Part shown: piece by piece, positions 39,909 through 60,483 of the stretch
How positions within the stretch are numbered: position 1 is the first letter of the stretch
How the letters are laid out: each line of letters starts with the position of its first letter
DNA from: Candidatus Bathyarchaeota archaeon
Lineage (GTDB): Archaea > Thermoproteota > Bathyarchaeia > 40CM-2-53-6
Assembly: GCA_963706285.1 (NCBI GenBank)
Contig: CAVPLU010000006.1
Span: forward strand, 30,439-94,438
DNA length: 64,000 nucleotides
Direction of reading: 5' to 3'
Position numbers and translations under genes: made by a program
The notes under the pieces: generated by a model
What the model was told of the DNA's origin: nothing
The model's database searches: none
The model's input: the letters and a program-made list of their open reading frames with translations, nothing else

Positions 39909-40061
39909 TGCGGGGGGTGGGATTCGAACCCACGAAGGCCTACGCCACAGGATCTCTTATCCCAAGGCGGATCTTAAGTGTGGCACGACTCGAAGGGTCG
40001 TCCTGCCCCTTTGACCTGAATCCCGCCCTTAATGCCGCGCACGGGTCTCGGGAACCCCCGC
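39909..40061 (-). tRNA. tRNA-Leu(UAA) with three BHB introns (15/16: 40046-40020; 30/31: 40001-39980; 37/38: 39972-39954)
   Basis: Spliced: GCGGGGGTTCCCGAG|TCAGGTCAAAGGGGCAGG|ACTTAAG|ATCCTGTGGCGTAGGCCTTCGTGGGTTCGAATCCCACCCCCCGCA; complete cloverleaf with a long variable arm. Confidence 0.92.
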
Positions 40062-40150
40062 TCGATACCTGCTAAGCCACGGTTTGGCTAAAAACTTGTG
40101 ATGCAGAATGCTTGCCTGTGAGAGTGGTTCACACAACACATGATCGAGCA

Positions 40151-40160
40151 AACTATATGA
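40151..40160 (+). promoter_or_regulatory. Putative TATA box of tRNA-Arg(CCU)
   Basis: 'AACTATATGA' about 30 nt upstream of the tRNA 5' end at 40186. Confidence 0.45.
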
Positions 40161-40185
40161 TGGCATGAAGGGTACTCTCGCCGGA

Positions 40186-40355
40186 GGGCCCGTGGCGCAG
40201 TCTCGCAGGTTGACGCCTGTGAGGCGAAATACGGACAGCGCGGCAGATAGGTCCCTTGGGCTAGCCGAGCCTCCTAAGTGAACCGCGGAATCAGCTGTAG
40301 AGTGCGCCGAAAACGCACGCAAAAGTCCGGGGTTCAAATCCCCGCGGGCCCGCCA
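40186..40355 (+). tRNA. tRNA-Arg(CCU) with four BHB introns (15/16: 40201-40229; 30/31: 40247-40269; 37/38: 40277-40292; 45/46: 40301-40324); CCA encoded
   Basis: Spliced: GGGCCCGTGGCGCAG|TACGGACAGCGCGGCAG|CCTCCTA|AGCTGTAG|GTCCGGGGTTCAAATCCCCGCGGGCCCGCCA; all four stems pair and A20 is present. Confidence 0.9.
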
Positions 40356-40448
40356 AACATCCTAGTCAGGCCGTACTATATAGACACAGAAAACCTATGT
40401 CTATGTCACATCTCCTTCCCGCGTCGGAATCCATTGAGGATGGCATAG

Positions 40449-42575
40449 TTGGCAACTACGCAGTTCAAGTATGCGCTTGGCAGGGTAGCAAACGGCTACA
40501 ACAACAGAACATTATACATCGACGTTTCAAACATGCGGATTGTCGAGAAGCCAGCTACCGAAAACATGAAAGAGAAATTCATAGGCGGCCGCGGATTCGA
40601 TCTTTTTCTCCTCTGGCAGGCCCTACCGAAAGATCGTATCATTGGTTGGGATGACCCTGAAAACGAGATATGTGTTGCTTGCGGCCCCTTGGGGGGGACG
40701 CCAGGATACCCGGGCAGCGGGAAAAGCATTGCAGTTACGATATCTCCACTGACCGGGTCTGTTGTCGATTCGAATGTCGGTGGATACTTTGGGCCTTATC
40801 TGAAGTTTGCCGGTTGGGATGCGCTTGAGATTCAAGGAAAATCCAATTTCGAAGCAGTTATTCTCATAGACGGAGACAATGGCATAGTCCAGATAGAGGA
40901 TGGATCCGGACTTCCTAACCAAACGCACTCTCTAACAGATACCCTGGCTAGGAGATTCGGAGGTGACAAGCCGAATAGCATTTCCGTCATCTCGTCAGGC
41001 CCAGCAGCTGAGCACACTCTCATGGGGTCTCTCAATTCTTCATGGTACGACGCAGCACGTAAGACTCACAGGATCAAACAGGCGGGAAGAGGCGGAATCG
41101 GAACAGTACTTCGCAATAAGAGAATAAAGGCAATAGTAGTGAAGTATTCTGGTGGAATAACCGCCGAGTCAAACGGTCCGGCAGATCCAGAACTAGTAAA
41201 GAAGACAGGGACTGCTCTCGCAAAGGAAATACGAATGCTTGATCCCAAACAGAATGAAATGTCAATCGTCGGGACTACTCATCTCGTTACCATAATGAAC
41301 GAATTCGATCTTCTCCCAGTAAACAATTTCCGATTTGGAAGCAACGTCGAAGCAGAAAGAATTGGCAGAGAAGTCTACAGAAAGAAGTTCGACAAGGGAT
41401 TCGACGGGTGCTGGATGGGGTGCGCTTTGTCATGCGCCCATGTTATCAAAGGATTCCGGCTCAGGACAGGTCCACATCGTGGACAAGAAGTCTACGTGGA
41501 CGGTCCTGAATACGAAACCATTGCTGGAGTCGGCAGCAACTGCGGTATCTTTGACCCCGACTACATCACCGAGATGAACTTCTACTGTGACACGTATGGC
41601 CTGGATACGATCTCCATTGGCACAAGTATCGCCTTTGCAATGGAGTGTTACGAAATGGGGCTAATTGACAAGAATGTGACCGGTGGTTTGGATCTCAAGT
41701 TCGGCAACAAGGAGGCGGCTCTTGAACTGGTCCATCAGATGGCCAGCGGGAACGGCTTCGGCGTTGTGGTTGGACAAGGGATAAGGCGAATGAAGCGACT
41801 TTTTGCTGAAAAGTACGGAGCTGATCCAAAGATCCTAAACGACATTGGCATGGAGGCCAAGGGATTGGAGTTCTCTGAGTATGTGACCAAGGAATCGTTG
41901 GCACAGCAAGGCGGATACGGACTCGCCTTGAAAGGCCCTCAACACGACGAGGCTTGGTTGATATTCCTTGACATGGTGCATAAACTGATGCCGACATTTG
42001 AACAGAAAGCCGAGAACTTACATTGGTTCCCGATGTTCCGCACTTGGTTCGGCCTGAACGGCCTATGCAAACTGCCATGGAATGACGTTATTCCGGAGAA
42101 CAATAGCAAGACAAAGGAGCCGGCAAAGGTAATGGCTCATGTTGAGGACTATGCCACTTTCTTCTCGGCAGTAACCGGAAGAAAAGTCACACCTGACGAT
42201 ATTATCCCAATGAGCGAACGCGTATACAATTTCCAACGAATCTTCAACCTGAGAATGGGTTACGGCACACGAGAGCACGACGCCATACCCTATCGAGCTG
42301 TGGGGCCCGTAACAAAGGAAGAATATGAAAGTCGTCAAGAACGCTACGATACCCAACTTAAGGAAAAAGTGGGCTTTGATCCAGCAGGTCGGAGTACTAA
42401 CGAAAAAATGGAAGCACTCCGGAGATATCGCGAAGCAGAATACGAGAGGTTGAAGGACGCGGTCTACGAGAGAAGAGGGTGGAACAAGAACGGCGTGCCA
42501 ACTCTGGAAAAGGCCAAGGCCCTTGGCATAGACTACCCGGACGTAGTGGAGCTATTAGAGAAGCATGGTGCCTAG
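40449..42575 (+). CDS. aor: Tungsten-containing aldehyde:ferredoxin oxidoreductase family protein
   Basis: 'FIGGRG', 'SPLTG..DSNVGG', 'AGRGG.G', 'GCWMGCALSC', 'GPEYET', 'DTYGLDTIS'. Confidence 0.92.
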   Translation: MATTQFKYALGRVANGYNNRTLYIDVSNMRIVEKPATENMKEKFIGGRGFDLFLLWQALPKDRIIGWDDPENEICVACGPLGGTPGYPGSGKSIAVTISPLTGSVVDSNVGGYFGPYLKFAGWDALEIQGKSNFEAVILIDGDNGIVQIEDGSGLPNQTHSLTDTLARRFGGDKPNSISVISSGPAAEHTLMGSLNSSWYDAARKTHRIKQAGRGGIGTVLRNKRIKAIVVKYSGGITAESNGPADPELVKKTGTALAKEIRMLDPKQNEMSIVGTTHLVTIMNEFDLLPVNNFRFGSNVEAERIGREVYRKKFDKGFDGCWMGCALSCAHVIKGFRLRTGPHRGQEVYVDGPEYETIAGVGSNCGIFDPDYITEMNFYCDTYGLDTISIGTSIAFAMECYEMGLIDKNVTGGLDLKFGNKEAALELVHQMASGNGFGVVVGQGIRRMKRLFAEKYGADPKILNDIGMEAKGLEFSEYVTKESLAQQGGYGLALKGPQHDEAWLIFLDMVHKLMPTFEQKAENLHWFPMFRTWFGLNGLCKLPWNDVIPENNSKTKEPAKVMAHVEDYATFFSAVTGRKVTPDDIIPMSERVYNFQRIFNLRMGYGTREHDAIPYRAVGPVTKEEYESRQERYDTQLKEKVGFDPAGRSTNEKMEALRRYREAEYERLKDAVYERRGWNKNGVPTLEKAKALGIDYPDVVELLEKHGA

Positions 42576-42630
42576 TCCAAACGCCTGGCTTATGCAAGAC
42601 ATCAACTTCCGAGGACGTTGAGCCAGTCGT

Positions 42631-42660
42631 AGCACCGAGGGCGGAGCCGCCTCGGGCGCT
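42631..42660. terminator. GC-rich hairpin between the convergent aor and hisS genes
   Basis: CCGAG-G-GCGG-AG-CCGC-CTCGG inverted repeat; function unproven. Confidence 0.3.
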
Positions 42661-42672
42661 CCATCTCGCTTC

Positions 42673-43983
42673 CTATTCGGATAACAATTGGCTGATGATT
42701 TCTTCCAGTGTGAGGCTTTCCTCTGTCCGCTTCTTCATGTCTCTGAGTTTGAATTGGCCTGATTTGATTTCTTGAGGACCCACGATTAGTGCGTAGGGAA
42801 TGCCCAGTGAGTCTGCGTACTCAAGCTGTTTTGCAAGAGACTTGTGCTTGACATCCACATCCGACGAGATTCGAACACCGCGGAGTTTGCCCGCAATCGA
42901 GAGTGCCTGTTGCCTGACGTCGTCATTGACCGCGGCGACAAAGACAGTTCCCGCCTGCCTAAGCTTCGGGAACACGCCTTCCTTCTCTAATGAGATCATA
43001 AGCCTCTCTATGCCCCCCGCGACTCCCGTCGCTGGAATACTCCTCTTTCCATAGACGCCGCAAAGCTTGTCGTACCTTCCTCCGCCCAATATTGCTCCGA
43101 CATCTCCTTCCCCTTTGTCGAAAGCCTCAAAGACGATGCCATCGTAGTATCCAATGCCTCTAACTACGCTCATATCGAGTAAGCAACGATCCAACTTACC
43201 GAAACCCTGTAACGCGTCAGTCAGCTGAGCAAGTTGTCTGTAACCTAGCTTTGCAACTTCGTTTCGTGTCTCAACTTCACAGATCTTGTTGAGGACTTCA
43301 GCAGGTTTCCCTTGGATCGATGTGAAATCCACTAGCGCGTCTATAACCGTGCTCTCCAGCCCCTCTGAACGCAGTTCCGTCTTGACAGCTTCACTAGAGA
43401 TCTTACGCGACTTGTCGACTATGCGAAAGACCGCTTCCATCTTCCCTTGAGCCTGCAATCCTAGGCTTTCAATGAATCCTTGGATGACCTTGCGATTCGA
43501 AATCCGAACTTCAAATTCTTTCAGCCCAACATTGCATAGAATGTCAATACTTAGGGCGATGACTTCTGCATCGGCTACTGGGTCGTCGGATCCGAAGATC
43601 TCCGCGTCCCACTGGGTGAAATATCTGTATCGCCCATATTGTGGTTCATCGTATCGCCAGTTACCGCCAATACAGGCAAACTTGATTGGTTCAGGGAGAT
43701 CGGAGCGGCCAGCGATCATGCGAGCCATGCCGACGGTTAGATCGAACCTGAGGCCGATACTGCGGCCTGCTTTGTCGTTGAACCAGTAGATCTCATCCTT
43801 GATGGCGGGCCCACTTTTCGCCTCTAGAGTTCTGAGTTCCTCAAGCGTCGCGGGTTCCATCTCCTGAAACGCGTATCTACGAAACACGTCTCGTATTCTC
43901 TCGTAAACCCAGTTGCGCTTCGCCATCTCATCAGGTTCGATGTCTCTGATTCCTCTTGGCAAAGTGAATGGTTTGTCTGACAT
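42673..43983 (-). CDS. hisS: Histidyl-tRNA synthetase
   Basis: 'PRGIRD', 'LRFDLT', 'RYDEPQYGRYR', 'RGIGYYDG', 'GGGRYD'. Confidence 0.95.
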   Translation of the reverse strand: MSDKPFTLPRGIRDIEPDEMAKRNWVYERIRDVFRRYAFQEMEPATLEELRTLEAKSGPAIKDEIYWFNDKAGRSIGLRFDLTVGMARMIAGRSDLPEPIKFACIGGNWRYDEPQYGRYRYFTQWDAEIFGSDDPVADAEVIALSIDILCNVGLKEFEVRISNRKVIQGFIESLGLQAQGKMEAVFRIVDKSRKISSEAVKTELRSEGLESTVIDALVDFTSIQGKPAEVLNKICEVETRNEVAKLGYRQLAQLTDALQGFGKLDRCLLDMSVVRGIGYYDGIVFEAFDKGEGDVGAILGGGRYDKLCGVYGKRSIPATGVAGGIERLMISLEKEGVFPKLRQAGTVFVAAVNDDVRQQALSIAGKLRGVRISSDVDVKHKSLAKQLEYADSLGIPYALIVGPQEIKSGQFKLRDMKKRTEESLTLEEIISQLLSE

Positions 43984-44115
43984 TCGGCTCGCCTCTATGC
44001 TCATGCAGGACGCTATCTCATTCGAAGGTGTGCTAAGTGTTTTCTTTCGATTTTCGTGCACCACGGCTTATTAGGGGGAGAGGCAACTCCCCTAGATTCC
44101 TATTTGGACGTGCGG

Positions 44116-44637
44116 ATGTTGCCAGGAGCAAGAGCAAGTTTCGGCATGTCAGTCCTGACTGGATTGGTCATTGCTGGAGTCATAGGAGTCCTTCTAGATA
44201 TTACAGAAATCCCAGCGGGTGGCGCCATCGGTGCCTTCGTTGGCGGGCTTGTCTCGGCCTTGCTCCTCTACGCTGGACGTAGGAGGACAACGATCATCGG
44301 ATTTCTTGTTGGGTTGTTCAGCTTTCCAGTTGAACTTACGATCCTAATGGGAGTAGTCACTTCCAATCTGTACACGCCACCCCAAGTTCCGGAAATTTCA
44401 TCGAGCGTTCTGCTAGTCGCCTTAGTAACGACTCTGCTCATGCAGATCATGGGAGGAACAATTGGAGGACTTCTTGGCGGCATCATACGACACCCGCCGC
44501 CAGGGACAGAAGAGGTGCCAAGCCCAAACCCGCCTCCGTCTCCACAGCGTCCCGAGAAGTATTGTGTCCAATGTGGAGCAGGGTTGGCTAAGGGGGCCTC
44601 GATCTGTCACGCTTGCGGGGCAAAACAGCCCTCATGA
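44116..44637 (+). CDS. Membrane protein with a C-terminal double zinc ribbon
   Basis: Four hydrophobic segments, Pro-rich linker, 'CVQCG...CHACG'. Confidence 0.7.
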   Translation: MLPGARASFGMSVLTGLVIAGVIGVLLDITEIPAGGAIGAFVGGLVSALLLYAGRRRTTIIGFLVGLFSFPVELTILMGVVTSNLYTPPQVPEISSSVLLVALVTTLLMQIMGGTIGGLLGGIIRHPPPGTEEVPSPNPPPSPQRPEKYCVQCGAGLAKGASICHACGAKQPS

Positions 44638-44734
44638 TCAGCGCTACGATTCCTCTGGGATCAACAACCTGAGTCTGAACAACCCGTCTCTCTACTGGTG
44701 GAGAGTAGGGTCTGTGGACTACTCTGGGCCTAGG

Positions 44735-45259
44735 CTATACTTTGAGGAAGTCAAGCGAATAGTAGACAATGTCAGTTCGTCTGTCAACTACTGCCAGAAT
44801 CAGGTCTTTCTTGTCCCTCGAAGCTCTCTTCAGCAGCTTTCGGAGGGTCTTAAGGTCCGCCTCTCCGCCCTCGTAGACAATGTAAACGTATCTCCGCATC
44901 GGTCCTTTTCCATGAATCTCAAAATCAAAAACTGGGGATTCTCTAACGATGTATCCTCGGTCCCGAAGGTCGCGGTATACTAGATATTTCACCCAGAGAG
45001 CGGGCTCTTTCGTAGCTGCCGACTTCACCAGTTTCTCAAAGGTAATGCTCTCTTTTTTCTTCCCTTCGACGGTGATTCTGCCTTTCTCAAGAAGATAGAA
45101 TGCCTCATGGGGTGTCAGAACGAGCTTCTTTCCTCGAAGCTCTCCGAAGCCACGCTCACGCATCTCCATTAGTTCCGATGCTCTCGGGAAAAAGACTTCG
45201 TTCGTTCCGAGGAATGCTTCGTAGACTTGGAATGGCTTCTCAGCCTCTGGCTCACTCAC
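44735..45259 (-). CDS. endA: tRNA splicing endonuclease, structural (non-catalytic, beta-type) subunit
   Basis: 'EAFYL', 'YLVYRDLRDRGY', 'LILAVVD....IVYY'; the catalytic 'KYG' Tyr and the His are absent. Confidence 0.82.
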   Translation of the reverse strand: MSEPEAEKPFQVYEAFLGTNEVFFPRASELMEMRERGFGELRGKKLVLTPHEAFYLLEKGRITVEGKKKESITFEKLVKSAATKEPALWVKYLVYRDLRDRGYIVRESPVFDFEIHGKGPMRRYVYIVYEGGEADLKTLRKLLKRASRDKKDLILAVVDRRTDIVYYSLDFLKV

Positions 45260-45352
45260 TATTTGTTCAGTCCCGCTCGATTAGTCGAATGTCATCTACA
45301 CAAGCGCTTTGCTTTTAATGTAATCGCGTGGTGCTCTACGTCGGCGTCATGC

Positions 45353-46387
45353 TTGGTTGATCTCAAGACTTTGAGGACTGTTGAGTGGACGCGTACCGGA
45401 GTGCGGTTAGTCGACCAAAGGCGGCTCCCTGATCGACTGACGTACGTGGTGTGCCGGGATTATCGACAAGTTGCTCATGCAATACGCGATATGACTGTGA
45501 GAGGAGCGCCTGCCATTGGAGTCACCGCAGCGATGGGACTAGCCCTAGCAGCGAAACGCAGCAAACACAGCGATGAGAAGCGGCTATTGCTCGATGTTGA
45601 GAAAGCTGCGGTGACTATTCGAGCAACGCGACCCACCGCAAGAAACCTGTTCTGGGCGATCGAGCGGATAATGAAGAAAGCCCGAGAGGCAGCTCACCAA
45701 GGACTTGACATCCGAGAGACTCTCGTGGCCGAAGCACAGCTTATGGCGAATGAGGACATCGAAGCTAACCGAAAGATGGGTGCCAATGGCGCCCAGTTGA
45801 TTCAAGATGGCGATACAGTTCTCACGCACTGCAATACCGGCACGATGGCTACTGTAAGCTACGGAACGGCACTGGGAGTGGTTCGAAGCGCGATCGCACA
45901 AGGCAAGAAAGTCAACCTCATCGCAACCGAGACTAGGCCAAGACAGCAGGGTGCAAAGATAACTGTCTATGAGGCAATGTCGGACAAGATCCCCACGACT
46001 TTGATTGTTGATAGCGCCGTCGGAATAACGATGTCAAAGGGCATGATAAACAAGGTCATCGTAGGAGCTGACCGAATAACGAGAACTGCTGTCGCAAACA
46101 AAGTGGGCACTCTTATGATTGCCCTCGCCGCAAAATACTACGGCATCCCTTTCTACGTTGCCGCTCCTACCACAACACTCGACCTGACTGCAGATTCTGC
46201 CAACATATCGATCGAGGAACGGGACCCGAGAGAGGTTACAGAGATCCGAGGAAAGCGAATTACGCCAGAGGGAGTCAAAGTCTTCAACCCAGCGTTTGAC
46301 GCAACGCCGCTGGAGCTCGTCACCGCAGTGATCACGGAAAAGGGAGTATTCTCAAAGGAACAACTGCTGAAGGTGGCAGGCGTCTGA
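45353..46387 (+). CDS. mtnA: Methylthioribose-1-phosphate isomerase (eIF2B-like family)
   Basis: 'DQRRLP', 'VRGAPAIG', 'TRPTARNL', 'THCN', 'ETRP', 'GADRI', 'NPAFD'. Confidence 0.9.
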   Translation: MVDLKTLRTVEWTRTGVRLVDQRRLPDRLTYVVCRDYRQVAHAIRDMTVRGAPAIGVTAAMGLALAAKRSKHSDEKRLLLDVEKAAVTIRATRPTARNLFWAIERIMKKAREAAHQGLDIRETLVAEAQLMANEDIEANRKMGANGAQLIQDGDTVLTHCNTGTMATVSYGTALGVVRSAIAQGKKVNLIATETRPRQQGAKITVYEAMSDKIPTTLIVDSAVGITMSKGMINKVIVGADRITRTAVANKVGTLMIALAAKYYGIPFYVAAPTTTLDLTADSANISIEERDPREVTEIRGKRITPEGVKVFNPAFDATPLELVTAVITEKGVFSKEQLLKVAGV

Positions 46388-46420
46388 CCGAGCAAAGCTG
46401 GTCAGGGTAGTATGGTGCGC

Positions 46421-47473
46421 TCACTCTGATCTGCTAAAGGTGCAGAGTTCACTTGGTTCTTCTAGGTATCGGTTGATTGTGACCTCAGCGATCATCTGGC
46501 AGTATCGAGCGGTCTCTGTTAGATTCCACGCAATTGATCTAAACGCAAGCGCAACATTTCGGTTTGAGACATCGTCCACAATCTTCTCTGAGATCTTCCT
46601 GTTCCTAGCCTGCGTGCGTATGCCGTCTTCGATTGATTTGTTCGCAAGATCTACATCCAGCTTGACAAAAGCTTTCATGGTGTTTTCCGAAATGAGCTTG
46701 ACCGCTTTGCTCATCTCAACGATTTCGTCAAGCACTGGCTTGTGTTTGTCATAATCTTCATCTTTGATTCCGATGACTTCCTTAGCCACATTCTCTGCGC
46801 AATCGGCGATACATTCCAAGTACTTCGAAACGATGCGGTTTCCCAACGTGTGTTGTGGATTAAAGACTCCGATATCGCGAGCGGTGCTGAGCCTTGTCGT
46901 TGCCAGTATCAGTTGACGAACTATGAGCCAATAGATCCGATCAGCCTCGTTCTCTATCTGAAGAACCTGGCCGGCAATGTCATGCCTCTTATCCAAAAGG
47001 GCCGTTATTGCTGCGTCTTGCATAGAGAGTCCAACTCTGTGCAACCTTTGAATCAAGCCGCTAACGGGGAACTTGGAGGGATCCACGAAACTCTGGATCA
47101 CTACCTGCTTGGGACTCTGTTCAACAATGCTGAGTCCCATCAGTCTCTGAACCGTGCTTCTGATTTCCCACAGGTGCTCTGAACTCAGGCCCTTGCTTGA
47201 CGTTATGACTACCGAATCTCTTCCCTCAATGTAGTTCCCGGTGATGATCCTTGAGAGTAGCTCTCGTTCTTTGCATAGGTCAGCGTTCACTCTTGCCACC
47301 GTGGACTCTCCCTCTTCGCCGGCCAAACCCGGAATCAGCCTGAGGCATCCGTCGTCTGTGCGTCTCAGAGAGACAACGTTTCCTTGCTTCAGACCTACTT
47401 GTTCCACCCAGTCTCGCGGCAGGGAGACTGTGAGTGTCGAATGTCCGACTTTCTGCACTTTCCGAATTTCCAT
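46421..47473 (-). CDS. phoU: Archaeal PhoU-family regulator with an N-terminal AbrB domain
   Basis: 'RKVQKVG.STL.VSLPRDW', 'ENEADRIYW', 'LECIADCA'. Confidence 0.85.
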   Translation of the reverse strand: MEIRKVQKVGHSTLTVSLPRDWVEQVGLKQGNVVSLRRTDDGCLRLIPGLAGEEGESTVARVNADLCKERELLSRIITGNYIEGRDSVVITSSKGLSSEHLWEIRSTVQRLMGLSIVEQSPKQVVIQSFVDPSKFPVSGLIQRLHRVGLSMQDAAITALLDKRHDIAGQVLQIENEADRIYWLIVRQLILATTRLSTARDIGVFNPQHTLGNRIVSKYLECIADCAENVAKEVIGIKDEDYDKHKPVLDEIVEMSKAVKLISENTMKAFVKLDVDLANKSIEDGIRTQARNRKISEKIVDDVSNRNVALAFRSIAWNLTETARYCQMIAEVTINRYLEEPSELCTFSRSE

Positions 47474-47668
47474 TCAATCTACCCAACTAGGAGCTAGGCG
47501 ACGGGTCTTAGTGGTCCTTGTGTTTACCGTCATTACCTAGTGCATAGCTCCATGGGCGAAGTTTTGAACATATATATTGCGTTTAGAAAGCAAATAGAAT
47601 CACTAGGAAATGCGTGAAACCTAATTGTTGGGGTCAGTGTCCAAGGCTCTGGCCTTGGCTGACCCGTG

Positions 47669-48779: not shown

Positions 48780-48786
48780 AAAAAAG

Positions 48787-51492: not shown

Positions 51493-51699
51493 GCCTCACA
51501 TCCCAACTGATATCGGGGCAACTTCTGATTCTGCATTTGATGTCCGACGGAGTGTTGCGCCACTGGGCACTCGCCCTGCTAAATAGATTCGCTCTATCCT
51601 CAGGCTCAGGCCGAACCGTGCTGTTGCATGTAGATTAGCGACGAAATGCACTTAAGCTGCGCAGAGAGACCGAGAGGTGCCGTTAGGTCGGGATATCTT

Positions 51700-51942
51700 T
51701 TGGCACAGACTGTGCAGCAGAAATCCCTAGTCAGAATTCTGGAGGAGCGGTGTAAGGGCTGCGAACTCTGTGTACATGCGTGCCCTCAAGGGAACCTCTC
51801 CCTCTCGAACAAGCTGAACAGGATGGGATTCCATCCTGCAGTGTGGAGCTTTGTGGGCACGAAAGGAGCTTGCACTGCATGCGGAATCTGTTATTGGGTC
51901 TGTCCGGACTTTGCAATACACGAGGTCTTGGTGAGGACCTGA
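51700..51942 (+). CDS. 2-oxoacid:ferredoxin oxidoreductase delta (2x[4Fe-4S]) subunit
   Basis: Two CxxCxxCxxxCP motifs. Confidence 0.88.
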   Translation: MAQTVQQKSLVRILEERCKGCELCVHACPQGNLSLSNKLNRMGFHPAVWSFVGTKGACTACGICYWVCPDFAIHEVLVRT

Positions 51943-51945
51943 GGG

Positions 51946-53016
51946 ATGACTGAACGGGTCTACATGAAAGGCAACGAAGCACTCGCATACGGCGCTCTGA
52001 AAGCAAAGCTCAACGCATACTTCGCCTACCCCATAACCCCATCAACCGAGATCCCAGAGACGCTGGCCAAAGAATTCGGAAGCGAACAGTACCCTGACTT
52101 CAGAGTGTTCCTGCAGGCCGCCAGTGAGATTGAAGCCGTGAACATGGTTTTAGGTGCTGCAGCCGGCGGAGTGCGAGTGATGACTGCTACGTCAAGTCCC
52201 GGTTTCAGTCTCAAACAAGAGGCACTATCATACGCGGCAGGAATGGAGCTACCACTTCTAATTGTCAATGTCAACAGAGGCGGGCCGGGCCTAGGCAACA
52301 TTGCACCTGAACAAGGAGACTACTTCCAAATGACGAAAGGAGGCGGACATGGCAGTTATCACCTGATCGTGCTGGCGCCGAACTCGGTCCAGGAAATGGC
52401 GAGTTTCCCCAAGATCGCATTCGATCTTGCTTTCAAGTACAGGAATCCTGCTTGTATCGCAGGAGACGCTTTCACAGGTCAACTGAAGGAAGACATCGTC
52501 TTCCCGACTATTCAGGCCTCGGAGTATGATGTATCCTCGTGGGCGGCCACGGGTGCAAGCGGGAGAGAACGCCACGTAATCAATTCAATGAACCTAGATC
52601 CGGAAATTCACGTAACGCACGAGACCCACCTCGATGAGAAATACAAGATGATCCAGCGGCATGAAGTCAGATACGAGTCCCACCTGACCGACGACGCCGA
52701 GACGGTGATCGCAGCATATGGGACCACATCACGGATCTGCAAGAGCGTAGTCAACAAACTCCGGGGCGAGGGCTCGAAGATAGGATTATTCCGACCGATT
52801 ACCCTCTGGCCGTTTCCCTACGACCAGATTCTAAGGTTGACCGAACACGTCAAACGATTCCTAGTCGTAGAGCTGAACACGGGACAAATGGTAGAAGATG
52901 TTCGCCTAGGCGTAGAAGGAAAGGCACGAGTCAACTTCTTCGGGAAAGTTGGCGGCCTTCTCCCGACCGAACAGGAGATCGAGAAAGAATTAGCAAAAGA
53001 GATGATTGCAGCTTGA
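51946..53016 (+). CDS. 2-oxoacid:ferredoxin oxidoreductase alpha subunit (Vor/Kor-like)
   Basis: 'YPITP', 'SEIEA', 'TSSPGFSL', 'RGGPG'. Confidence 0.92.
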   Translation: MTERVYMKGNEALAYGALKAKLNAYFAYPITPSTEIPETLAKEFGSEQYPDFRVFLQAASEIEAVNMVLGAAAGGVRVMTATSSPGFSLKQEALSYAAGMELPLLIVNVNRGGPGLGNIAPEQGDYFQMTKGGGHGSYHLIVLAPNSVQEMASFPKIAFDLAFKYRNPACIAGDAFTGQLKEDIVFPTIQASEYDVSSWAATGASGRERHVINSMNLDPEIHVTHETHLDEKYKMIQRHEVRYESHLTDDAETVIAAYGTTSRICKSVVNKLRGEGSKIGLFRPITLWPFPYDQILRLTEHVKRFLVVELNTGQMVEDVRLGVEGKARVNFFGKVGGLLPTEQEIEKELAKEMIAA

Positions 53017-53828
53017 CCACACAGGAACCAAGCTTGGAAGATTATCACAAGAAACTCGGAAAGCTCGAAGCACTAACCGACAACCCGACCCATTATTGTC
53101 AAGGCTGCGAACACGGCGAACTAACGCGGCTGATCGCAAGCGCTATCGAGAATCTTGGCGTTCGAGAAAGAACAGTGATGATAGACTCGGTGGGATGTAG
53201 CGTCCTCTCATTCGACTACTACAACGTCGACCACATACAGTCGCCTCACGGCCGAGCCCCCGCGGTAGCAACGGGGCTCAAGAGAGTCAGACCAGAGCTG
53301 GTTGTCTACACGGTCCAGGGAGATGGCGACGCACTAGCCATAGGGCTGCTAGAAAGCATGTACGCCGCAATTCGCGGAGAACCGATCTCGGTGTTTCTGG
53401 TCAACAATGCAATATACGGAATGACGGGTGGACAGATGGCTCCGACTACACTGCAGGGCCAAGTCACCACAACTACCCCATACGGCCGAGACATCGGCTT
53501 CACAGGCGCACCAATTGACGCTTCAAAACTGATCTCAACCATCGACGGATCAGCCTACGTGAAGAGGGTGAGCCTCGCCGTCAGCGAGTTGGAAACCCCG
53601 AAAGGCAAGACGTACAGCATCAAGAACATACTCGAAGCGAAACAGGCAATTGAGAACGCATTCAAGGTTCAAATGATGGGCGGATTCACCTTCGTCGAGT
53701 GTCTCTCCAGCTGCTGGGTAAACTGGAAACTGCCCATCATGGAAGCCAAACGATTCGTAAACGAGCAGCTCGTCAAGCAGTATCCTCTTGGAACATACAA
53801 GGACAAGTTTGGGATCGAGAAGAAGTGA
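53013..53828 (+). CDS. 2-oxoacid:ferredoxin oxidoreductase beta subunit
   Basis: 'YCQGC', 'VGC', 'HGRA', 'GDGD...NN.IYGMTGGQ'. Confidence 0.92.
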   Translation: MTTQEPSLEDYHKKLGKLEALTDNPTHYCQGCEHGELTRLIASAIENLGVRERTVMIDSVGCSVLSFDYYNVDHIQSPHGRAPAVATGLKRVRPELVVYTVQGDGDALAIGLLESMYAAIRGEPISVFLVNNAIYGMTGGQMAPTTLQGQVTTTTPYGRDIGFTGAPIDASKLISTIDGSAYVKRVSLAVSELETPKGKTYSIKNILEAKQAIENAFKVQMMGGFTFVECLSSCWVNWKLPIMEAKRFVNEQLVKQYPLGTYKDKFGIEKK

Positions 53829-54424
53829 GCAAGACCGAGATTCTACTCTCCGGACATGGCGGACAGGGAGTGCTTCTTCTCGGAGACTACATAGCATACT
53901 CCGCTATGCTCGACGGAAAGCACGTGGCTTACACTCCCTCATATGGGCCTGAGACGAGAGGTGGAAAGGCGAAGTGCTATGTCGTGATCTCAGATGAGGA
54001 GATAGACACCCCGATCCCAGAGGAACCAGATCTTATGATCATACTAAATCGACCTTCGATGGATTTTGTACCGATGCTCAGGAAGGACGGCCTACTACTC
54101 TACAACAGCTCACTGATCCAAGAAGAAGCCCAGAAGAACGATATCAAGAAGATCGCCGTTCCCGCCACCGAGATCGCTGACTCGCTCGGAAAAGAGCTGA
54201 ATCCCACATCCTCGGGAGAATCCAATGATACAAGATTCGTGGCCAACTCCGTGATGTTCGGTGCGTACTTGGGAACGCCCGCAGGCCAAACCGCAAGGAA
54301 GCATCTGGATGAAACTCTTGAGCACTTCCTTGCAGGAAAGAAATCCAGTCTTCTTGAGCTTAATCGATTGGCGGTTGAACACGGCCTCCGACACATGTCA
54401 ACTGTGTCCGTAGTAATGCGTTGA
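53825..54424 (+). CDS. 2-oxoacid:ferredoxin oxidoreductase gamma subunit
   Basis: 'GHGGQG', 'SYGPETRGG'; GTGA overlap with the beta subunit. Confidence 0.9.
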   Translation: MSKTEILLSGHGGQGVLLLGDYIAYSAMLDGKHVAYTPSYGPETRGGKAKCYVVISDEEIDTPIPEEPDLMIILNRPSMDFVPMLRKDGLLLYNSSLIQEEAQKNDIKKIAVPATEIADSLGKELNPTSSGESNDTRFVANSVMFGAYLGTPAGQTARKHLDETLEHFLAGKKSSLLELNRLAVEHGLRHMSTVSVVMR

Positions 54425-54525
54425 AATGGACCCCACCTGCAGAGGGTTCAGCACACAACATTGAGAGCATATACGGAATCCACATATCTATTTACCACAT
54501 AGCAGGTCGTGAAGTGCAAGACAGG

Positions 54526-55878
54526 ATGCCCCAAGTCACAAAAGAGCAGCTGCTAGAGAAGGCTAGGAAGCCTGCAAAGGATGCAATGCGTCTTCACCCC
54601 TTCTATAGGGGCAAAATGCAGACGGCCCCGAGATGTACGATCCGAGATTTCAACGACTTTGCAATATGGTACACGCCAGGTGTAGCTGAGCCCTGTCGTG
54701 CTATCCAGAAGGACGAGAAACTCGTCTACGAGTACACCAACAAATGGAACACGATCGCGGTTGTAAGCGATGGAACCAGAGTGCTTGGCCTCGGAGACAT
54801 AGGCCCGAAAGCCGCAATGCCGGTAATGGAGGGAAAAGCGCTTCTATTCAAGTACCTCGGAGGCGTCGACGCCGTTCCGATCTGTCTTGACACGAAGGAT
54901 CCAGACGAGATAATCAAAGCCACAAAGTGGCTTCAACCCTCCTTCGGCGGCATAAACTTGGAAGACATCTCCAACCCGAAGTGCTTCTACATTCTAGACA
55001 GGCTGCGTGCTGAGGCGGAGATACCCGTCTGGCATGACGATCAACAAGGAACTGCATGCGTGACCCTTGCTGGATTGATCAATTCACTGGAAGTCGTCGG
55101 CAAGAAGATGAGGCAAATCACCTTGACATTGATCGGAGCGGGCTCGGCCAATGTTGCCTGTGCTCGACTAATGTATGCTTACGGGCTGAGACCAGAGAAC
55201 ACAATCGTCGTAGACACAAAGGGCATACTGAACCGGCAAAGGAAGGATGTCGAGGCAAAGAAGGCGGAGTTGCCTGAAAAGTGGAAATTCTGTGAGACAA
55301 CAAACGAGGAGCAACGATCAGGAGGCATTCCAGAAGCCCTCAAAGGCGCTGATGTGTGTATCGCTCTCTCCCAATCTGGCCCAGGCGTCATCAAGGAAGA
55401 GTGGGTGGCGAGGATGGCGAAAGACTCGATAATTTTCGCTTGTGCGAACCCGATTCCTGAGATCTGGCCCTGGGAGGCCAAAGAGGCAGGAGCGAAGGTC
55501 GTCGCGACAGGGCGATCCGATTTCCCGAACCAGGTAAACAACTCCCTCGGCTTCCCAGGCATTTTCAGAGGAACACTCGACGTTCGTGCTAGGACAATCA
55601 CAGACGAGATGTGCATCGCGGCTGCTGAAGAGCTCGCAAAATGCGCAAGGGAACGGGGACTGAACCCAGACTACATCACACCAAACATGGACGAATGGGA
55701 AGTGTTTCCACGTGAAGCCGTCGCAGTCGGAATGAAAGCCCAAGAACAGGGAGTGGCAGAACTCAAAATCAGTCGAAACGAGCTCTACGAACGAGCATGC
55801 AACATAATCATGAGCTCACGTGAGCTTGCGAAAAGCATGATGGAAAACGGATTCATCGCCCCACCGCCATCGGAATGA
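54526..55878 (+). CDS. mae: NAD(P)-dependent malic enzyme
   Basis: 'YTPGVAEPC', 'VMEGK', 'NLEDI', 'HDDQQGT', '[12 protein letters not shown]'. Confidence 0.93.
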
Positions 55879-56063
55879 GACAAGCAACGGAAGACCCTCA
55901 TTCACCGCGGCACGGCGCTCAACCCACACGAACACAGACTATTCGCATGTGACCAACGAATTCGGAATCGTGATCGGCGATATCGAGACAAGCGAAGACC
56001 TAAAACCATCTTCAAAGCTACGGGTACCACGTTCGCGTTCGCATGTGGATTGCACGCTGACAG

Positions 56064-57285
56064 TTGGACTTGGTAGTGCCCACAGTCTCTGATAGAATTG
56101 ATCTTCTTCACATATCTCCCATTCGACGTGTTTCCGCTCTATTGGCTGATGCCAGGAGAAAGAGGGACATAATCTCGTTCGGCGGCGGCGCTCCGAGTCT
56201 CCTCCCGTCACAAGTAGTCTTGGACGAAATGAAACGGGCGCTCACCGACGATCCCGGAGCCGCATGCGGATACGCCGGCACCCGCGGTCTCTTCGAACTG
56301 CGACGCCTACTGTCCGATGACTTCGCAAGAGAGGAAGGGACGAAATATGATCCGGAAAACGAGATCGTAATAACCGACGGTGCAAGTGAAGGCGTCTTCA
56401 CCCTCTTCATGTCCCTTCTCGGAAGCGGGGACGAAGTGATAATCACGGATCCCACCTACCTTGGCTTCCGAGAAGCATCGATGCTGGCAGGAGCGCACGT
56501 TCGCACTCTGCCCGGTGAACGTCGATGAGGGTTATCAGCCTGATATCGAGAAGCTCAAGACGCTGATCACCAAACAGACGAAAGCCTTCGTCCTCCTCTC
56601 TCCAGATAACCCAACTGGAAGAGTCGTCAAAGATGATTTCGTAAAGGCGCTGGTCGATCTTGCCGTCGACCACAACTTCTGGATCATATATGATGCAACG
56701 TATCGGGACATATTCTTCGAAGGAACATATCTTAAGATCTGCAGCCTGCCAGGGGGATATGATCACGTTGCGGTTACAGGCAGCTTCTCGAAGGAAGCCT
56801 CGATCCCCGGGCTCCGACTTGGATACGTCATGGGCCCTCCAGTAGTGGCTGACGCGGTAGAGAAGATCAAACAGTACACGAGCCTTGCACCGAACACTCT
56901 CAGCCAGATCGGAATGATCAAGTTCTTCTCCGGCGACGTCAAACGGAAATATCTCAGCGAGACCGTCTTGCCTACCTACAGGACAAGGCGAGACTTCATG
57001 GCAAAGTGCATCCGCGAGTATCTACCTGAAGCGAAGACATCATTGCCGCAGGGCGCGTTCTACTTCTTTGTGGATCTGAAATACTACCTAGACGGCATGA
57101 AAAGGGACGATGCAGAATTCTGCAACAGAGTGCTCGAGCGGAAGAGCATTGTGCTGATACCAGGGTCGTTCTTCGGTGCCAACGGCGCCGGACACACACG
57201 AGTGACTTTCGTAAGTGAACCTGAGCAGAGAATCGAGGCTGGAATAAAGGCAGTCGCTGGCTACGTTTTCAGCTTCACTTTCTAG
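56064..57285 (+). CDS. PLP-dependent aminotransferase class I/II (frameshift near 56510)
   Basis: 'SPDNPTG', 'DATY', 'SFSK....PGLRLGY'. Confidence 0.88.
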
Positions 57286-57286
57286 T

Positions 57287-58039
57287 CTACGGAATTTCCT
57301 GCAGTGGTTTCTTCGCTACCTGCAGAACAATCTCTACGGGCGCTCTCGCAGCTTGCTCGATCTTAGCCTTCCACTCACTGCCTATCGATACGAGGGCGTA
57401 GATGCCGCTGACCTCCCCCTTGGCCTTCTGGACGATTCGGGCGAGTGCAACTTGGGTTTCGCCGCTATCTATCACGTCGTCGACGATAAGGACGCAGTCG
57501 CCCCTCTTGATGGCGTCTCGCGGTACAAACAGGCTCATCATGATTGCAGTCCTGCTTGGGATGTAGATCTCCTCAATGAACTCGCGTACGCCAACCTCCC
57601 GGCTCTTCTTAGCGATGACTAGACCTACCCCGATTCTGTGGGCCACCAAGGTCGCGAGCGGAATGCCGTCCACTGCGGCCGCCAGCACCTTCGTGATACG
57701 TTTGCCTGCGAAGGCGTTGATTGCATGTTGTACTGCCCTTTCTAGAAGAAGTGTGTCAGAAATCAGTCGGGTGTTGTCGAAGTAGCCGAGCTCGTCAAAT
57801 CGGATTCGCTGCTGTATCTCACCCTCTAGACGCATGATCTTCTGAAGAGTCTGATTAATCGACTGAGCACGGTCAATTGTGGGCAGAACGTGCCCTTTGA
57901 CGTATCTGCTGAGTACAGTCTCTGGTAAGCCGATAATCTGCGCCAATTCTCGATATGTATAGTAGTTCTTGGCGAGATTGAGCAGTTCGATCGTCATCAG
58001 CTTGTATTTGAGGTCAGAAATCCTAGAACCTGCTCTCAT
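57287..58039 (-). CDS. HTH plus purine phosphoribosyltransferase (PurR-like, TACK-type)
   Basis: HTH 'TYRELA...TVLSRYVKGHVLP'; PRPP motif 'VLIVDDVIDSGET'. Confidence 0.85.
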   Translation of the reverse strand: MRAGSRISDLKYKLMTIELLNLAKNYYTYRELAQIIGLPETVLSRYVKGHVLPTIDRAQSINQTLQKIMRLEGEIQQRIRFDELGYFDNTRLISDTLLLERAVQHAINAFAGKRITKVLAAAVDGIPLATLVAHRIGVGLVIAKKSREVGVREFIEEIYIPSRTAIMMSLFVPRDAIKRGDCVLIVDDVIDSGETQVALARIVQKAKGEVSGIYALVSIGSEWKAKIEQAARAPVEIVLQVAKKPLQEIP

Positions 58040-58145
58040 GGCTTTTTCCTCTCAGAACCAGTCCTATTTTCTCGGATACTAACAGGTTCATGCGTATATC
58101 TAATAAGACTTTCCACACTTCTTTGACATGAACCCATGGGGTAAC

Positions 58146-58581
58146 CTACCGGCGGCTACCCACGACTCCGAGGCTGTTTTGGTAGCGTCCTTCGTACGGG
58201 GCGGCAGCCCGCTTCCCAAGCCTCAGACACTGTCAGCTGCACGAACCTTTCTCCTGCCTTCAACTGGATCGTCTTGCTGCCGGTATTGGAAAGAGAAATC
58301 GTAAGTTGACCCTTGAAGCCCGGATCCACCAAAGCTAGGCTCGCCAATATCCCCTCACGGGCCAGAGAAGATCGTATGTGCAGGATCCCAACCAGGCCGC
58401 TGTCCAGCTCAACTCTCTCGATCGTGGCGACGAGGCGATGTTCTGAAGGCCCCAGCACTACGTCGGCGCTCAGCCTCAGATCGTACCCGGCTGGATTCAG
58501 GCTAGCCTCGTCAAAAGGGGCAATGATCAGGGTCTTCTCGGCCAGAGCACCTCGTATCTCTGAGTCTGAGAGCGCCATCAC
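58146..58581 (-). CDS. dcd: dCTP deaminase / dUTPase family protein (frameshift near the 3' end)
   Basis: 'PAGYDLR', 'RSSLAREG', 'VDPGFKG', 'GERFVQL'; the alternative frame gives 'YEGRYQ'. Confidence 0.85.
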
Positions 58582-58669
58582 GATCCGGCTCTGTATCGTC
58601 CAAGTAGATGAAATCGTTATGGGGTTAAGATGATTAAGCCTTCCCTAGAACGGATATGTCCCTCGTTAG

Positions 58670-59578
58670 ATGGGCTCATGTCGGGAAGCTTATCTAGTCG
58701 AAGAGTTGATCGGCGCCCAGTGCTGGGAAGAACCACTGAGGTTCCAAGTGAATCTGTTCACTGACATCTCAAACACCTCAGGGGTGAGGCTTGTCGGTGG
58801 CAAACTGGACATCATCATCGGAGCGCCCTCAGGAAGTGGTTCGTGTTCTATTCTCCGGGCGACTCCCAGCCTGCGCACCGAACTCAAAGCCGAAGGCAAC
58901 TTGCACGCACTCGTGAGTATTCCAGAACTTGACGCTGAGCAAAACTTCGAATCAAGAGTCGCGCTGGAATACGTGACACTGAATCGATCCTTCGAACTCG
59001 ACCAGGGCCCCCCGCCGATCAGCCTTGCTCAATCAAATGATAGCTACTGCAAGAATGACAAATTCTGGGAAACAAAAGACCCGTTGATCAAGCGAACTTC
59101 GGAGAAGATCCGCAGTTCATCCACTGACACAGGTGACTTCCTGTCACGTACATTCGCGTGGGTTCGCGACAACATGAAACTTCGAGATCCTCAGCCAACC
59201 CGTTTGGGTGCCGCACGTGCAATTCGCGAACTGATAGGTGACTGTGATGAAATGTCAGACCTCTTCATCGCGCTCTGCAGGGCCGCGAATGTTCCAAGCC
59301 GTCGAGTCGTCGGTATCTTCTACCACGGCCAACGATCCGAGTCAAGACCGTTCGATTGGCATGCGTGGGCTGAGGTTCAAGTGTCCAAGGACGTATGGGT
59401 TCCGTTCGATCCTTCTTTGAACTACTTCGCTGCGATCAGCGATAGACATCTGCCTCGGTGCTGCATGGGTAGGCGGTCTGACTATCCTATTAGAAGACTG
59501 ACGTGGCGATCGCACCCAGACAAGTTCCCAACACTCAATGATGACGATATTGAGACTATTACAGCTCTGTCCAGCTAG
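58670..59578 (+). CDS. Transglutaminase-like protein
   Basis: Cys-His-Asp triad 'GDCDE...HAWAE...FDP'. Confidence 0.85.
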   Translation: MGSCREAYLVEELIGAQCWEEPLRFQVNLFTDISNTSGVRLVGGKLDIIIGAPSGSGSCSILRATPSLRTELKAEGNLHALVSIPELDAEQNFESRVALEYVTLNRSFELDQGPPPISLAQSNDSYCKNDKFWETKDPLIKRTSEKIRSSSTDTGDFLSRTFAWVRDNMKLRDPQPTRLGAARAIRELIGDCDEMSDLFIALCRAANVPSRRVVGIFYHGQRSESRPFDWHAWAEVQVSKDVWVPFDPSLNYFAAISDRHLPRCCMGRRSDYPIRRLTWRSHPDKFPTLNDDDIETITALSS

Positions 59579-59650
59579 CGACCGAGCGGTCCTCTGCGAA
59601 CATTTAATCTCCTGCCTCGATCAAGCTAACCTCAGGACGCGCAAACTAGT

Positions 59651-59920
59651 TTGTGCCTCAATTATGTCCAAGGTGGCTTCTGCCTGATCGACGGGGGACC
59701 ATGTCTACTCGGCTCCCGAGGCAATGAAGCGAGGAACCAAGATCATGAATGCCCGAGACACGGCTCGTTTGATGTTTGGAGGACAAGAGAGGATCTGATC
59801 TTGATAAGCGACTTGGAAGGTCCTCACGAGAGCGTCAAAGACTGCTACGGGCTAAGGATCTCGCTGCAAGAAGCGCTCGAGTCGGACAGAAATGCGCACA
59901 AAGTCCAGCAACCAAGATAG
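59651..59920 (+). CDS. Small Cys-rich hypothetical protein
   Basis: 89-aa ORF with 5 Cys; its stop overlaps the next start. Confidence 0.45.
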   Translation: MCLNYVQGGFCLIDGGPCLLGSRGNEARNQDHECPRHGSFDVWRTREDLILISDLEGPHESVKDCYGLRISLQEALESDRNAHKVQQPR

Positions 59921-60129
59921 TGACTACTCAGAGAAAATGCTGCAGATGTGGAGAAGCGTTTTGGCCGCGAGCGGATCTCGCGGTAGAGGGTACGCCAAGT
60001 CGTGTAGGATGCTACTTCTGCCCTTCGTGTGTGAAGCTTGCCTCTCAAGTGGATCTTCAGGAATACTGGAAACGAATTGCTGGAACCCAATTCGTGACAC
60101 AGATTGATTTGATGGAGTGGTGCGGCTAG
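59920..60129 (+). CDS. Small zinc-finger protein
   Basis: 'CCRCG...CPSC'. Confidence 0.55.
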   Translation: MTTQRKCCRCGEAFWPRADLAVEGTPSRVGCYFCPSCVKLASQVDLQEYWKRIAGTQFVTQIDLMEWCG

Positions 60130-60330
60130 TCTCTCGGATTTCAACAAGAGAAGGCAACTGATGTGCGCTCCCTGATGTTTATCGAGACTATTCTTCTGTG
60201 CACCCGACGAGTTGTTCGCGCTGAGATCGACAATGTCGTCGTGAATCAATCAAAAGCGAGCAATATGAGACAAGGTTGGAGATGGAAAGGCATCGAGTTT
60301 CTTATAGCGGACAGAGGGCATAGCCTAGGT

Positions 60331-60483
60331 GGGCCCGTAGTCTAGGCCATCTTGTCATCTACAATTGATGATGTGATGGGGACAACCAGGATTAGGACAC
60401 AGTCGCACGCTTCGGTGTAGGCCTTCGGAACAAGCAGTGAGGAAAGCCTGGGATCCAGGGTTCGAATCCCTGCGGGCCCGCCA
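60331..60483 (+). tRNA. tRNA-Arg(UCG) with three BHB introns (15/16: 60346-60385; 29/30: 60403-60420; 37/38: 60429-60444); CCA encoded
   Basis: Spliced: GGGCCCGTAGTCTAG|CCAGGATTAGGACACAG|GCCTTCGG|AGCCTGGGATCCAGGGTTCGAATCCCTGCGGGCCCGCCA; TATA-like 'TTCTTATAG' about 30 nt upstream. Confidence 0.92.

Follow-up and report, generated by a model that had tools for sequence, protein, structure and literature searches.

Three multi-intron tRNA genes in a member of the Bathyarchaeia and a modelled, gene-specific bias in the order of their splicing

RESULTS

Three tRNA genes in the window carry ten introns

We analyzed a 64,000-nt stretch of a Candidatus Bathyarchaeota archaeon genome (assembly GCA_963706285.1, contig CAVPLU010000006.1, positions 30,439 to 94,438; hereafter the window) and, within it, the tRNA genes at the ends of a 20.5-kb range (window positions 39909 to 60483). 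The source is a 2.13-Mb metagenome-assembled genome (MAG), 89% complete and 7.5% contaminated; in our numbering it is G000, its contigs carry C-numbers, and G111 is a genome of the same genus. Three tRNA loci with perfect acceptor stems and T-arms, spanning 150 to 167 nt, lie at the range ends. The remainder of the range is made up of ordinary protein genes, and the feature under study is these three small loci, not the whole range. tRNA-Leu(TAA), a class II tRNA, is encoded on the minus strand (40061..39909; 153 nt, mature length 85 nt). tRNA-Arg(CCT) (40186..40352; 167 nt to the discriminator, mature length 75 nt) and tRNA-Arg(TCG) (60331..60480; 150 nt to the discriminator, mature length 76 nt) are on the plus strand. 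Leu(TAA) and Arg(CCT) are divergently oriented, with a spacer of 124 nt. The 3' CCA is gene-encoded in both Arg genes (40353-40355 and 60481-60483) and not in Leu(TAA). By eye, A/T-rich TATA-like octamers (40152-40159, 40089-40096, and 60301-60308) stand 23 to 35 nt upstream of the mature 5' ends, and a T-run lies downstream of Leu(TAA), which is consistent with three separate transcription units.

Introns were delimited with a solver that strips stretches bordered by the bulge-helix-bulge motif (BHB) and scores the remainder as a cloverleaf. The motif consists of a 4-bp central helix (H) between two bulges, an outer helix pairing exon with exon, and an inner helix pairing intron with intron. 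Its register was taken from the canonical 37/38 case, each 3-nt bulge being cut after the second base. The solver assigned ten introns (three in Leu(TAA), four in Arg(CCT), and three in Arg(TCG)), and the next-best solutions scored far lower.

Leu(TAA) contains, on the minus strand, a 27-nt intron at position 15/16 (40020..40046), with a 4-bp central helix formed with the D-stem strand 10-13, an inner helix of 3 bp, and no outer helix (type HBh'). Its 22-nt 30/31 intron (39980..40001) has the full hBHBh' motif (central 4 bp, outer 3 bp, inner 4 bp). The 19-nt 37/38 intron (39954..39972) has a central helix of 4 bp and an inner helix of 3 bp, with an outer helix that grows from 1 bp to 6 bp once the 30/31 intron is removed. 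The four plus-strand introns of Arg(CCT) are at 15/16 (40201..40229, 29 nt; three of four central pairs, inner helix 9 bp, no outer helix), 30/31 (40247..40269, 23 nt; central 4 bp, outer 1 bp, inner 3 bp), 37/38 (40277..40292, 16 nt; three of four central pairs, inner 3 bp, outer 3 bp rising to 5 bp after loss of the 30/31 intron), and 45/46 (40301..40324, 24 nt; three of four central pairs, formed with the anticodon-stem strand 40-43, inner 5 bp). Arg(TCG) holds plus-strand introns at 15/16 (60346..60385, 40 nt; central 4 bp, inner 5 bp, no outer helix), 29/30 (60403..60420, 18 nt; hBHBh' with central 4 bp, outer 3 bp, inner 2 bp), and 37/38 (60429..60444, 16 nt; hBHBh' with central 4 bp, outer 5 bp, inner 2 bp, complete already in the primary transcript). 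The 15/16 introns of all three genes are thus of the HBh' type.

In each of the ten introns, at least three of the four central pairs form and the inner helix is 2 bp or longer. The central helix is fully paired in six of them, and the full hBHBh' motif is present in the primary transcript in three. When exons were held fixed and each intron was shuffled 5000 times, the observed score for central plus inner helix was reached in 0 to 188 of the 5000 shuffles for every one of the ten. ARAGORN called the in-silico spliced products as Leu(taa), Arg(cct), and Arg(tcg), with the expected anticodons. The exon sequence at the 3' part of the three genes is unbroken for 36 to 45 nt. Two candidate assignments were rejected: nested D-loop introns in Arg(TCG), suggested by two strict motif matches, in favor of a single 40-nt intron, and a 10-nt "49/50" intron that the solver placed in Leu genes, a false removal within the variable arm.

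A reading of the DNA made earlier without database searches (the sequence-only reading) had proposed ten introns in three of three tRNA genes, at recurring positions and with unrelated sequences, and had expected standard annotation to miss or mis-call the genes. The solver bears out the count; introns at 15/16, 29-31, and 37/38 occur in all three genes, and alignments between introns score near the shuffled level. The expectation about annotation was also correct for ARAGORN and the Rfam tRNA model: ARAGORN found no tRNA in the unspliced window, and Rfam found none at its gathering score and gave only a weak T-arm-like match (60444-60479) at a relaxed threshold.

Every tRNA gene resolved in the genome is interrupted

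The tRNA genes of the whole genome were sought from an anchor consisting of an intact T-arm and a matching acceptor stem, and the results of stricter and looser solver runs were merged. This census resolved 31 genes, or 30 distinct sequences, with 66 introns. A relaxed T-loop pattern added three genes with seven introns, which brings the total to 34 resolved genes, 33 distinct sequences, and 73 introns (~2.2 per gene). The mostly intron-free tRNA set that would speak against a hyper-intronic genome was not what we found, as none of the 34 resolved genes is free of introns. One intron is present in 7 of the 33 distinct genes, two in 15, three in 9, four in 1, and five in 1. Among the 66 introns, the most frequent positions were 37/38 (19 introns), 30/31 (10), 15/16 (8), 22/23 (5), 29/30 (4), and 45/46 (4). 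The anchor search of the genome found no tRNA-like gene shorter than 88 nt, and the 13 full-length Rfam tRNA matches are all 88 to 129 nt long. Once spliced in silico, 31 of 31 products were recognized by ARAGORN.

The combination of 15/16, 29-31, and 37/38 introns, which the sequence-only reading had described from the window, is present in only five of the 30 distinct sequences (two for Arg(TCG) and one each for Leu(TAA), Leu(TAG), and Arg(CCT); four tRNA types). It is common to the three window genes and is not the general plan of the genome's tRNA genes. Across the 66 introns of the 30 genes, the best local alignment between introns of different genes scored 12, compared with 10 for shuffled introns, and no intron families of the Thermoproteales type, shared across tRNA types, rose above the shuffled level.

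Three genes, Gly(TCC) (C3:155198-155344), Ala(CGC) (C4:371617-371726), and Ala(TGC) (C4:398079-398190), have the T-loop TCCGAAT, with a C at the position of the nearly universal U55. With introns allowed, ARAGORN called Gly(TCC) as Trp(cca) and Ala(CGC) as Gln(ttg). Three further loci are real genes for which the solver gave no solution (C4:424466, C4:117192, and C13:128557, the last carrying 29/30 and 37/38 introns by eye), and an ARAGORN call at C13:35285 likewise had no solver solution. Four anchor candidates were judged not to be tRNAs (C4:68855, C4:177082, C10:153916, and C10:157157), and a search from a 5' anchor for more tRNA genes, which returned 397 candidates, mostly noise, was dropped.

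The census includes three duplicate or near-duplicate pairs, on contigs C1 and C20. The second copy of Arg(TCG) (C1:14037-14186) has nearly identical exons and is identical to the window gene at 127 of 150 positions; its 15/16 intron is also 40 nt long and differs in sequence. C20:1503-1610 and C20:9025-9127 duplicate two tRNA genes of C4, one identically and one nearly so. The C1 and C20 copies are either paralogues or derived from a co-binned related strain, given the contamination of the MAG.

Heavy interruption is a trait of the family, and intron ages differ

In a search of 150 genomes of the class, full-length DNA matches to Leu(TAA), introns included, were found within the genus, in the wider family, and in several further families of the order. 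An exon-anchored comparison that made no use of the motif covered 33 distinct Leu(TAA) genes (the window's own and those of relatives). Introns at 15/16, 30/31, and 37/38 were present in 28 of them. The other five (three genes of family f3, which belongs to the order, and two of family f12, which does not) had the 30/31 and 37/38 introns only. Intron lengths ranged from 14 to 35 nt (15/16), 17 to 33 nt (30/31), and 16 to 28 nt (37/38). The intron strand that pairs with exon in the central helix is nearly invariant and the inner helices covary by compensating pairs, while the rest of the intron sequence differs.

Arg(CCT) is colinear at 167 nt in the relatives L005 to L008. Its four introns were cleanly solved in L005, L006, L010, and L011; in L007 and L008 the solver broke the 15/16 stretch into weak calls, and L016, from another family, has only two introns. 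Among the genomes searched, the 40-nt 15/16 intron of Arg(TCG) was confined to the congener G111 and to the present genome, where both gene copies have it; six genomes of other families of the order have only the 29/30 and 37/38 introns in this gene. As the 15/16 intron of Arg(TCG) was seen in the genus only and that of Leu(TAA) in several families of the order, the two differ in age, and the layout shared by the window genes is partly convergent.

As a proxy for intron burden, the Rfam tRNA model was run over the 150 class genomes, with 30 candidates scored per genome. The 12 genomes of the own family gave 8 to 14 matches each (best E about 1e-10 to 1e-13), the 23 genomes of the rest of the order gave 7 to 25, and the remainder, from other families, gave mostly 17 to 31 (best E 1e-15 to 1e-17, with 72- to 75-nt matches). 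Heavy interruption is thus a trait of the family and, to a lesser degree, of the order, and not of the whole class. The lineage-wide hyper-intronic set proposed by the sequence-only reading accordingly extends over the family and much of the order, and stops short of the class. On these comparisons, some introns are old and vertically inherited, and others were gained since congeners diverged.

Two introns of tRNA-Pro(GGG) were gained recently

The gene with the most introns, tRNA-Pro(GGG) (C3:165487-165727, minus strand), lies outside the window. The solver placed five introns in it, at 7/8, 13/14, 20b/21, 30/31, and 45/46, and none at 37/38. In G111 the first 23 nt of this tRNA are contiguous, and exactly those 23 nt are broken here by inserts of 32 nt (7/8) and 64 nt (13/14); the other three introns are common to both genomes, with 96% identity. 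Elsewhere in the family, position 7/8 is occupied by a different, 25-nt intron in one genome and is uninterrupted in four. Because the 7/8 and 13/14 introns are absent from a genome of the same genus, they are recent gains. A search of the genome for donor copies of the two gave chance-level matches only. A few bases upstream of the true 5' end (C3, ~165732-165747, minus strand) stands a degenerate repeat of the opening 15 to 16 nt of tRNA-Pro, which is absent from G111; it could be the leftover of an insertion event.

The genome encodes a splicing endonuclease of predicted crenarchaeal type

Two EndA paralogues are encoded in the genome. One is in the window (44735-45259, minus strand; 174 aa, two EndA Pfam domains) and has a His in place of the catalytic Tyr and an Arg aligned with the catalytic His; with both catalytic residues missing, it is assigned as the structural (beta) subunit. 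The other, on contig C12 (locus L001:1456-2016), can be aligned over its whole length with the alpha (catalytic) subunits of S. tokodaii, A. pernix, and P. aerophilum. No gap falls in the stretch that makes up the Crenarchaea-specific loop, and the catalytic residues Tyr, His, and Lys are retained. From these features, the encoded endonuclease is predicted to be of the crenarchaeal alpha2 beta2 type and able to cut relaxed motifs; in the literature (PMC5829648, PMC3241643, and PMC4090602), this architecture is tied to the cleavage of relaxed and non-canonical motifs. The ligase RtcB (PF01139) is matched at C4:105729-107043 in two adjacent frames covering profile positions 1-243 and 236-426, a break for which a frameshift, a split gene, and an assembly error are possible causes. 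The beta subunit gene is situated between the tRNA loci and adjoins the genes for histidyl-tRNA synthetase (42673-44064) and an IF-2B family protein (45227-46387). The synthetase has relatives of 75 to 97% identity in Candidatus Bathyarchaeia MAGs.

The 29-31 and 37/38 motifs exclude each other, and modelling favors an order of removal in two of the three genes

The sequence-only reading had held that the anticodon stem serves as the outer helix of each 37/38 motif and is interrupted by the 29-31 intron, and that the central helices of the non-canonical motifs borrow D-stem or anticodon-stem strands. Both statements hold in the geometry of the solved genes, in which the central helices of the 15/16, 29-31, and 45/46 introns use positions 10-13, 24-28, and 40-43. 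The 29-31 motif of each gene either has nucleotides in common with the 37/38 motif or crosses it, and the two are thus mutually exclusive folds; the 15/16 motif shares no nucleotides with the others. All three primary transcripts nonetheless contain a relaxed 37/38 motif, consisting of the central and inner helices. The 29-31 introns of Arg(TCG) and Arg(CCT) end in three bases that replace the displaced exon bases, so that the 37/38 outer helix already measures 5 bp and 3 bp, respectively, before any cut. In Leu(TAA) the strict 37/38 motif forms only after removal of the 30/31 intron, the relaxed one being available earlier.

The ensemble cost of forming each core motif was calculated with ViennaRNA at 37°C for the primary transcript and every partly spliced form. 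For Leu(TAA), the cost of the 37/38 motif falls from 5.7 kcal/mol in the primary transcript to 3.3 kcal/mol after removal of the 30/31 intron, and that of the 30/31 motif is 4.2 kcal/mol both in the primary transcript and after the other removal. For Arg(CCT), the 37/38 motif costs 8.8 kcal/mol at the outset, 4.7 kcal/mol after the 30/31 intron is gone, and 3.0 kcal/mol after both the 30/31 and 45/46 introns are gone. Removing the 37/38 intron first would raise the cost of the 45/46 motif from 0.9 to 6.0 kcal/mol and that of the 30/31 motif from 4.1 to 6.4 kcal/mol. For Arg(TCG), the 37/38 motif goes from 2.2 kcal/mol in the primary transcript to 3.4 kcal/mol after 29/30 removal, and the 29/30 motif from 7.8 to 6.5 kcal/mol after 37/38 removal. 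The cost of the 15/16 motif barely shifts with splicing context. Across the 33 Leu(TAA) genes, loss of the 30/31 intron lowers the 37/38 cost by over 1 kcal/mol in 25 (median 2.8 kcal/mol), the 30/31 cost is unaffected (median change -0.1 kcal/mol), and the 30/31 motif is the cheaper of the two in the primary transcript in 29.

The modelling thus favors removal of the 30/31 intron before the 37/38 intron in Leu(TAA) and Arg(CCT) and gives no preference in Arg(TCG). On these calculations, order would be a soft, gene-specific bias in which the 37/38 intron tends to leave last, rather than an obligatory sequence built into the layout. Of the earlier proposal that the layout implies ordered splicing, the exclusive folding of the 29-31 and 37/38 motifs and the modelled bias in Leu(TAA) and Arg(CCT) stand; a strict requirement is unlikely, as the relaxed 37/38 motif pre-exists and Arg(TCG) has its full motif from the start and shows no dependence.

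DISCUSSION

Interruption of the tRNA genes and the path of splicing

The loci described here are very probably three functional tRNA genes, each with three or four short archaeal BHB introns that would be removed by the alpha2 beta2 endonuclease and RtcB, with a soft, gene-specific bias in order. From the gene structures, their motifs, their conservation, and the enzyme genes, we infer both that splicing takes place and the order that it tends to follow. The endonuclease would cut the precursor at each pair of 3-nt bulges, with the alpha subunit supplying the extra loop that has been linked to relaxed-motif cleavage, and RtcB would join the exons. Because the 29-31 and 37/38 motifs use overlapping nucleotides, the precursor would have to refold between those two cuts. 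In the modelled path, the 30/31 cut (and, in Arg(CCT), the 45/46 cut) may precede the 37/38 cut in Leu(TAA) and Arg(CCT).

Several points weigh against this interpretation. Four of the ten central helices have only three of four pairs. The intron boundaries in the two Arg genes and throughout the census were set by a solver that itself relies on the BHB motif, which makes motif quality in those genes a partly circular measure. The census is incomplete, with about a third of the expected tRNA types not located, and two of its calls are doubtful: the Leu(CAG) call on C8 required dropping a false variable-arm removal, and the call on C16 is better read as a Ser tRNA with 30/31 and 37/38 introns. 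The MAG itself is incomplete and contaminated and carries duplicate tRNA contigs. Among the RNA runs listed, none contains the Leu(TAA)-Arg(CCT) locus (39800-40450), and contigs from four runs cover about 30 to 55 bases of conserved 3' exon only; they have unlike flanks, from other organisms, contain no joints, and are uninformative either way. As to order, the folding model represents RNA at 37°C with no protein, the orthologues are kin and not independent samples, and the Arg(TCG) orthologues show no consistent order, the 37/38 motif being cheaper than the 29/30 motif in three of nine.

Comparison with known multi-intron tRNA sets

Three introns are given as the archaeal maximum per gene, and the richest Thermoproteales genome has 71 introns in 46 genes (PMC4033280 and PMC8450103). 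Members of the Thermoproteales (Pyrobaculum, Thermofilum, and Caldivirga) resemble the present genome in having an alpha2 beta2 endonuclease with the extra loop and in providing cases in which one intron must leave before the next motif forms (PMC4033280, PMC8450103, and PMC3728597). They belong to a different lineage from the Bathyarchaeia, their reported maximum is three introns per gene, compared with four in the window, five in Pro(GGG), and ~2.2 per resolved gene here, and their introns form families across tRNA types, whereas none exceeds the shuffled level here.

Asgard lineages offer a parallel. Introns are reported in 92 to 95% of their tRNA genes, over half of which have several (PMC11291895). 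A preprint (bioRxiv 10.64898/2026.10.13.758758) gives 2.2 intervening sequences for each gene and a maximum of five, places many of them in the D-arm, describes gains that recurred and an absence of intron families, and notes that standard software misses many. Near-total interruption, ~2.2 introns per gene, a maximum of five, repeated gains, and the lack of families are all shared with the present genome. The lineages differ, the preprint contains no mention of "Bathyarchae", and the gains described here separate genomes that belong to a single genus.

Precursors of the red alga Cyanidioschyzon merolae contain several BHB motifs, and the order of removal correlates with motif free energy, with the 37/38 intron last (PMC3728597). 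Our model gives the same 37/38-late direction for Leu(TAA) and Arg(CCT). That system is eukaryotic and was established with experimental intermediates, in contrast to the modelling used here, and its motifs mostly fold independently, whereas the 29-31 and 37/38 motifs here exclude each other. The idea of ordered splicing is already published for archaea and a red alga. Literature searches gave no description of Bathyarchaeia tRNA introns, although supplements (an Asgard reference panel and tRNAscan-SE tables) may hold such data; a co-occurrence of Bathyarchaeota and tRNA introns, in PMC7714728, is a footnote. What is new here is the lineage and the recent gains, multi-intron tRNA genes as such being known.

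Alternative explanations

Order might be stricter than a bias, the shared layout imposing stepwise refolding and cutting such that the 37/38 intron can be cut only once the 29-31 intron has gone. Much of the geometry leans that way: the 37/38 outer helix is the anticodon stem and is broken by the 29-31 intron, it lengthens from 1 to 6 bp in Leu(TAA) after 30/31 removal, in each of the three genes the two motifs cross or have nucleotides in common, and the 37/38 cost falls after 30/31 removal in 25 of 33 Leu genes. We nevertheless regard an obligatory order as unlikely, because the central and inner helices of the 37/38 motif exist in all primary transcripts and the encoded type of endonuclease is reported to cut relaxed motifs. 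Arg(TCG) moreover has a 5-bp outer helix before any cut, with a 37/38 motif that is cheaper in the primary transcript than after 29/30 removal, its orthologues show no consistent order, and cost differences of a few kcal/mol are not all-or-none. Conversely, a tolerant endonuclease might recognize each motif independently, perhaps during transcription, making the competing folds kinetically irrelevant. Such a mechanism would fit three observations: the primary transcript already offers a motif, if only a relaxed one, for each intron; the 15/16 motifs are independent and nearly context-free in cost; and Arg(TCG) shows no dependence. It is still somewhat doubtful as an account of all three genes, since no single fold can hold both the 29-31 and the 37/38 motif, the modelled asymmetries are consistent in Leu(TAA) (33 genes) and Arg(CCT), and ordered removal with 37/38 last was demonstrated experimentally in C. 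merolae (PMC3728597).

Two further alternatives concern why the introns are there, or whether they are real. The introns may persist because, by dividing tRNA genes, they deprive viruses and plasmids of integration targets. This hypothesis has already been put forward for archaeal tRNA genes that are split or contain introns (Randau and Soll, cited in PMC4033280), and it agrees with the interruption of every tRNA gene found. The 3' exons, which are the usual attachment sites, are however contiguous over the 36 to 45 nt noted above in the window genes, and we consider such shielding quite improbable as the reason for their retention. That the loci are pseudogenes, or the inserts assembly artefacts, could be suspected in a contaminated MAG with duplicated tRNA contigs. 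The same structures recur in independent assemblies of many relatives, exons are conserved and intron helices covary, and the genome yielded no compact version of any of these tRNAs; artefact or decay is hardly credible as an explanation.

Significance

The family to which this genome belongs is probably a third archaeal lineage, besides the Thermoproteales and some Asgard lineages, in which essentially all tRNA genes are interrupted and intron gain is ongoing; the 7/8 and 13/14 introns of Pro(GGG) and the 15/16 intron of Arg(TCG), none of which has a donor copy in the genome, are the examples. The few archaea known to have almost their entire tRNA gene set interrupted are thereby joined by a separate lineage, and the limit of three introns quoted for Crenarchaeota is exceeded. 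Tools that expect uninterrupted genes see none of the three window genes, and MAGs of the family will therefore look poor in tRNAs and receive lower completeness scores. Recent gains of introns, seen between close relatives, are now available for study; if the interpretation is correct, near-identical gene pairs with and without an intron would allow the mechanism of insertion to be examined close to the event, and the competing motifs at positions 29-38 would provide a natural test bed for order-dependent splicing.

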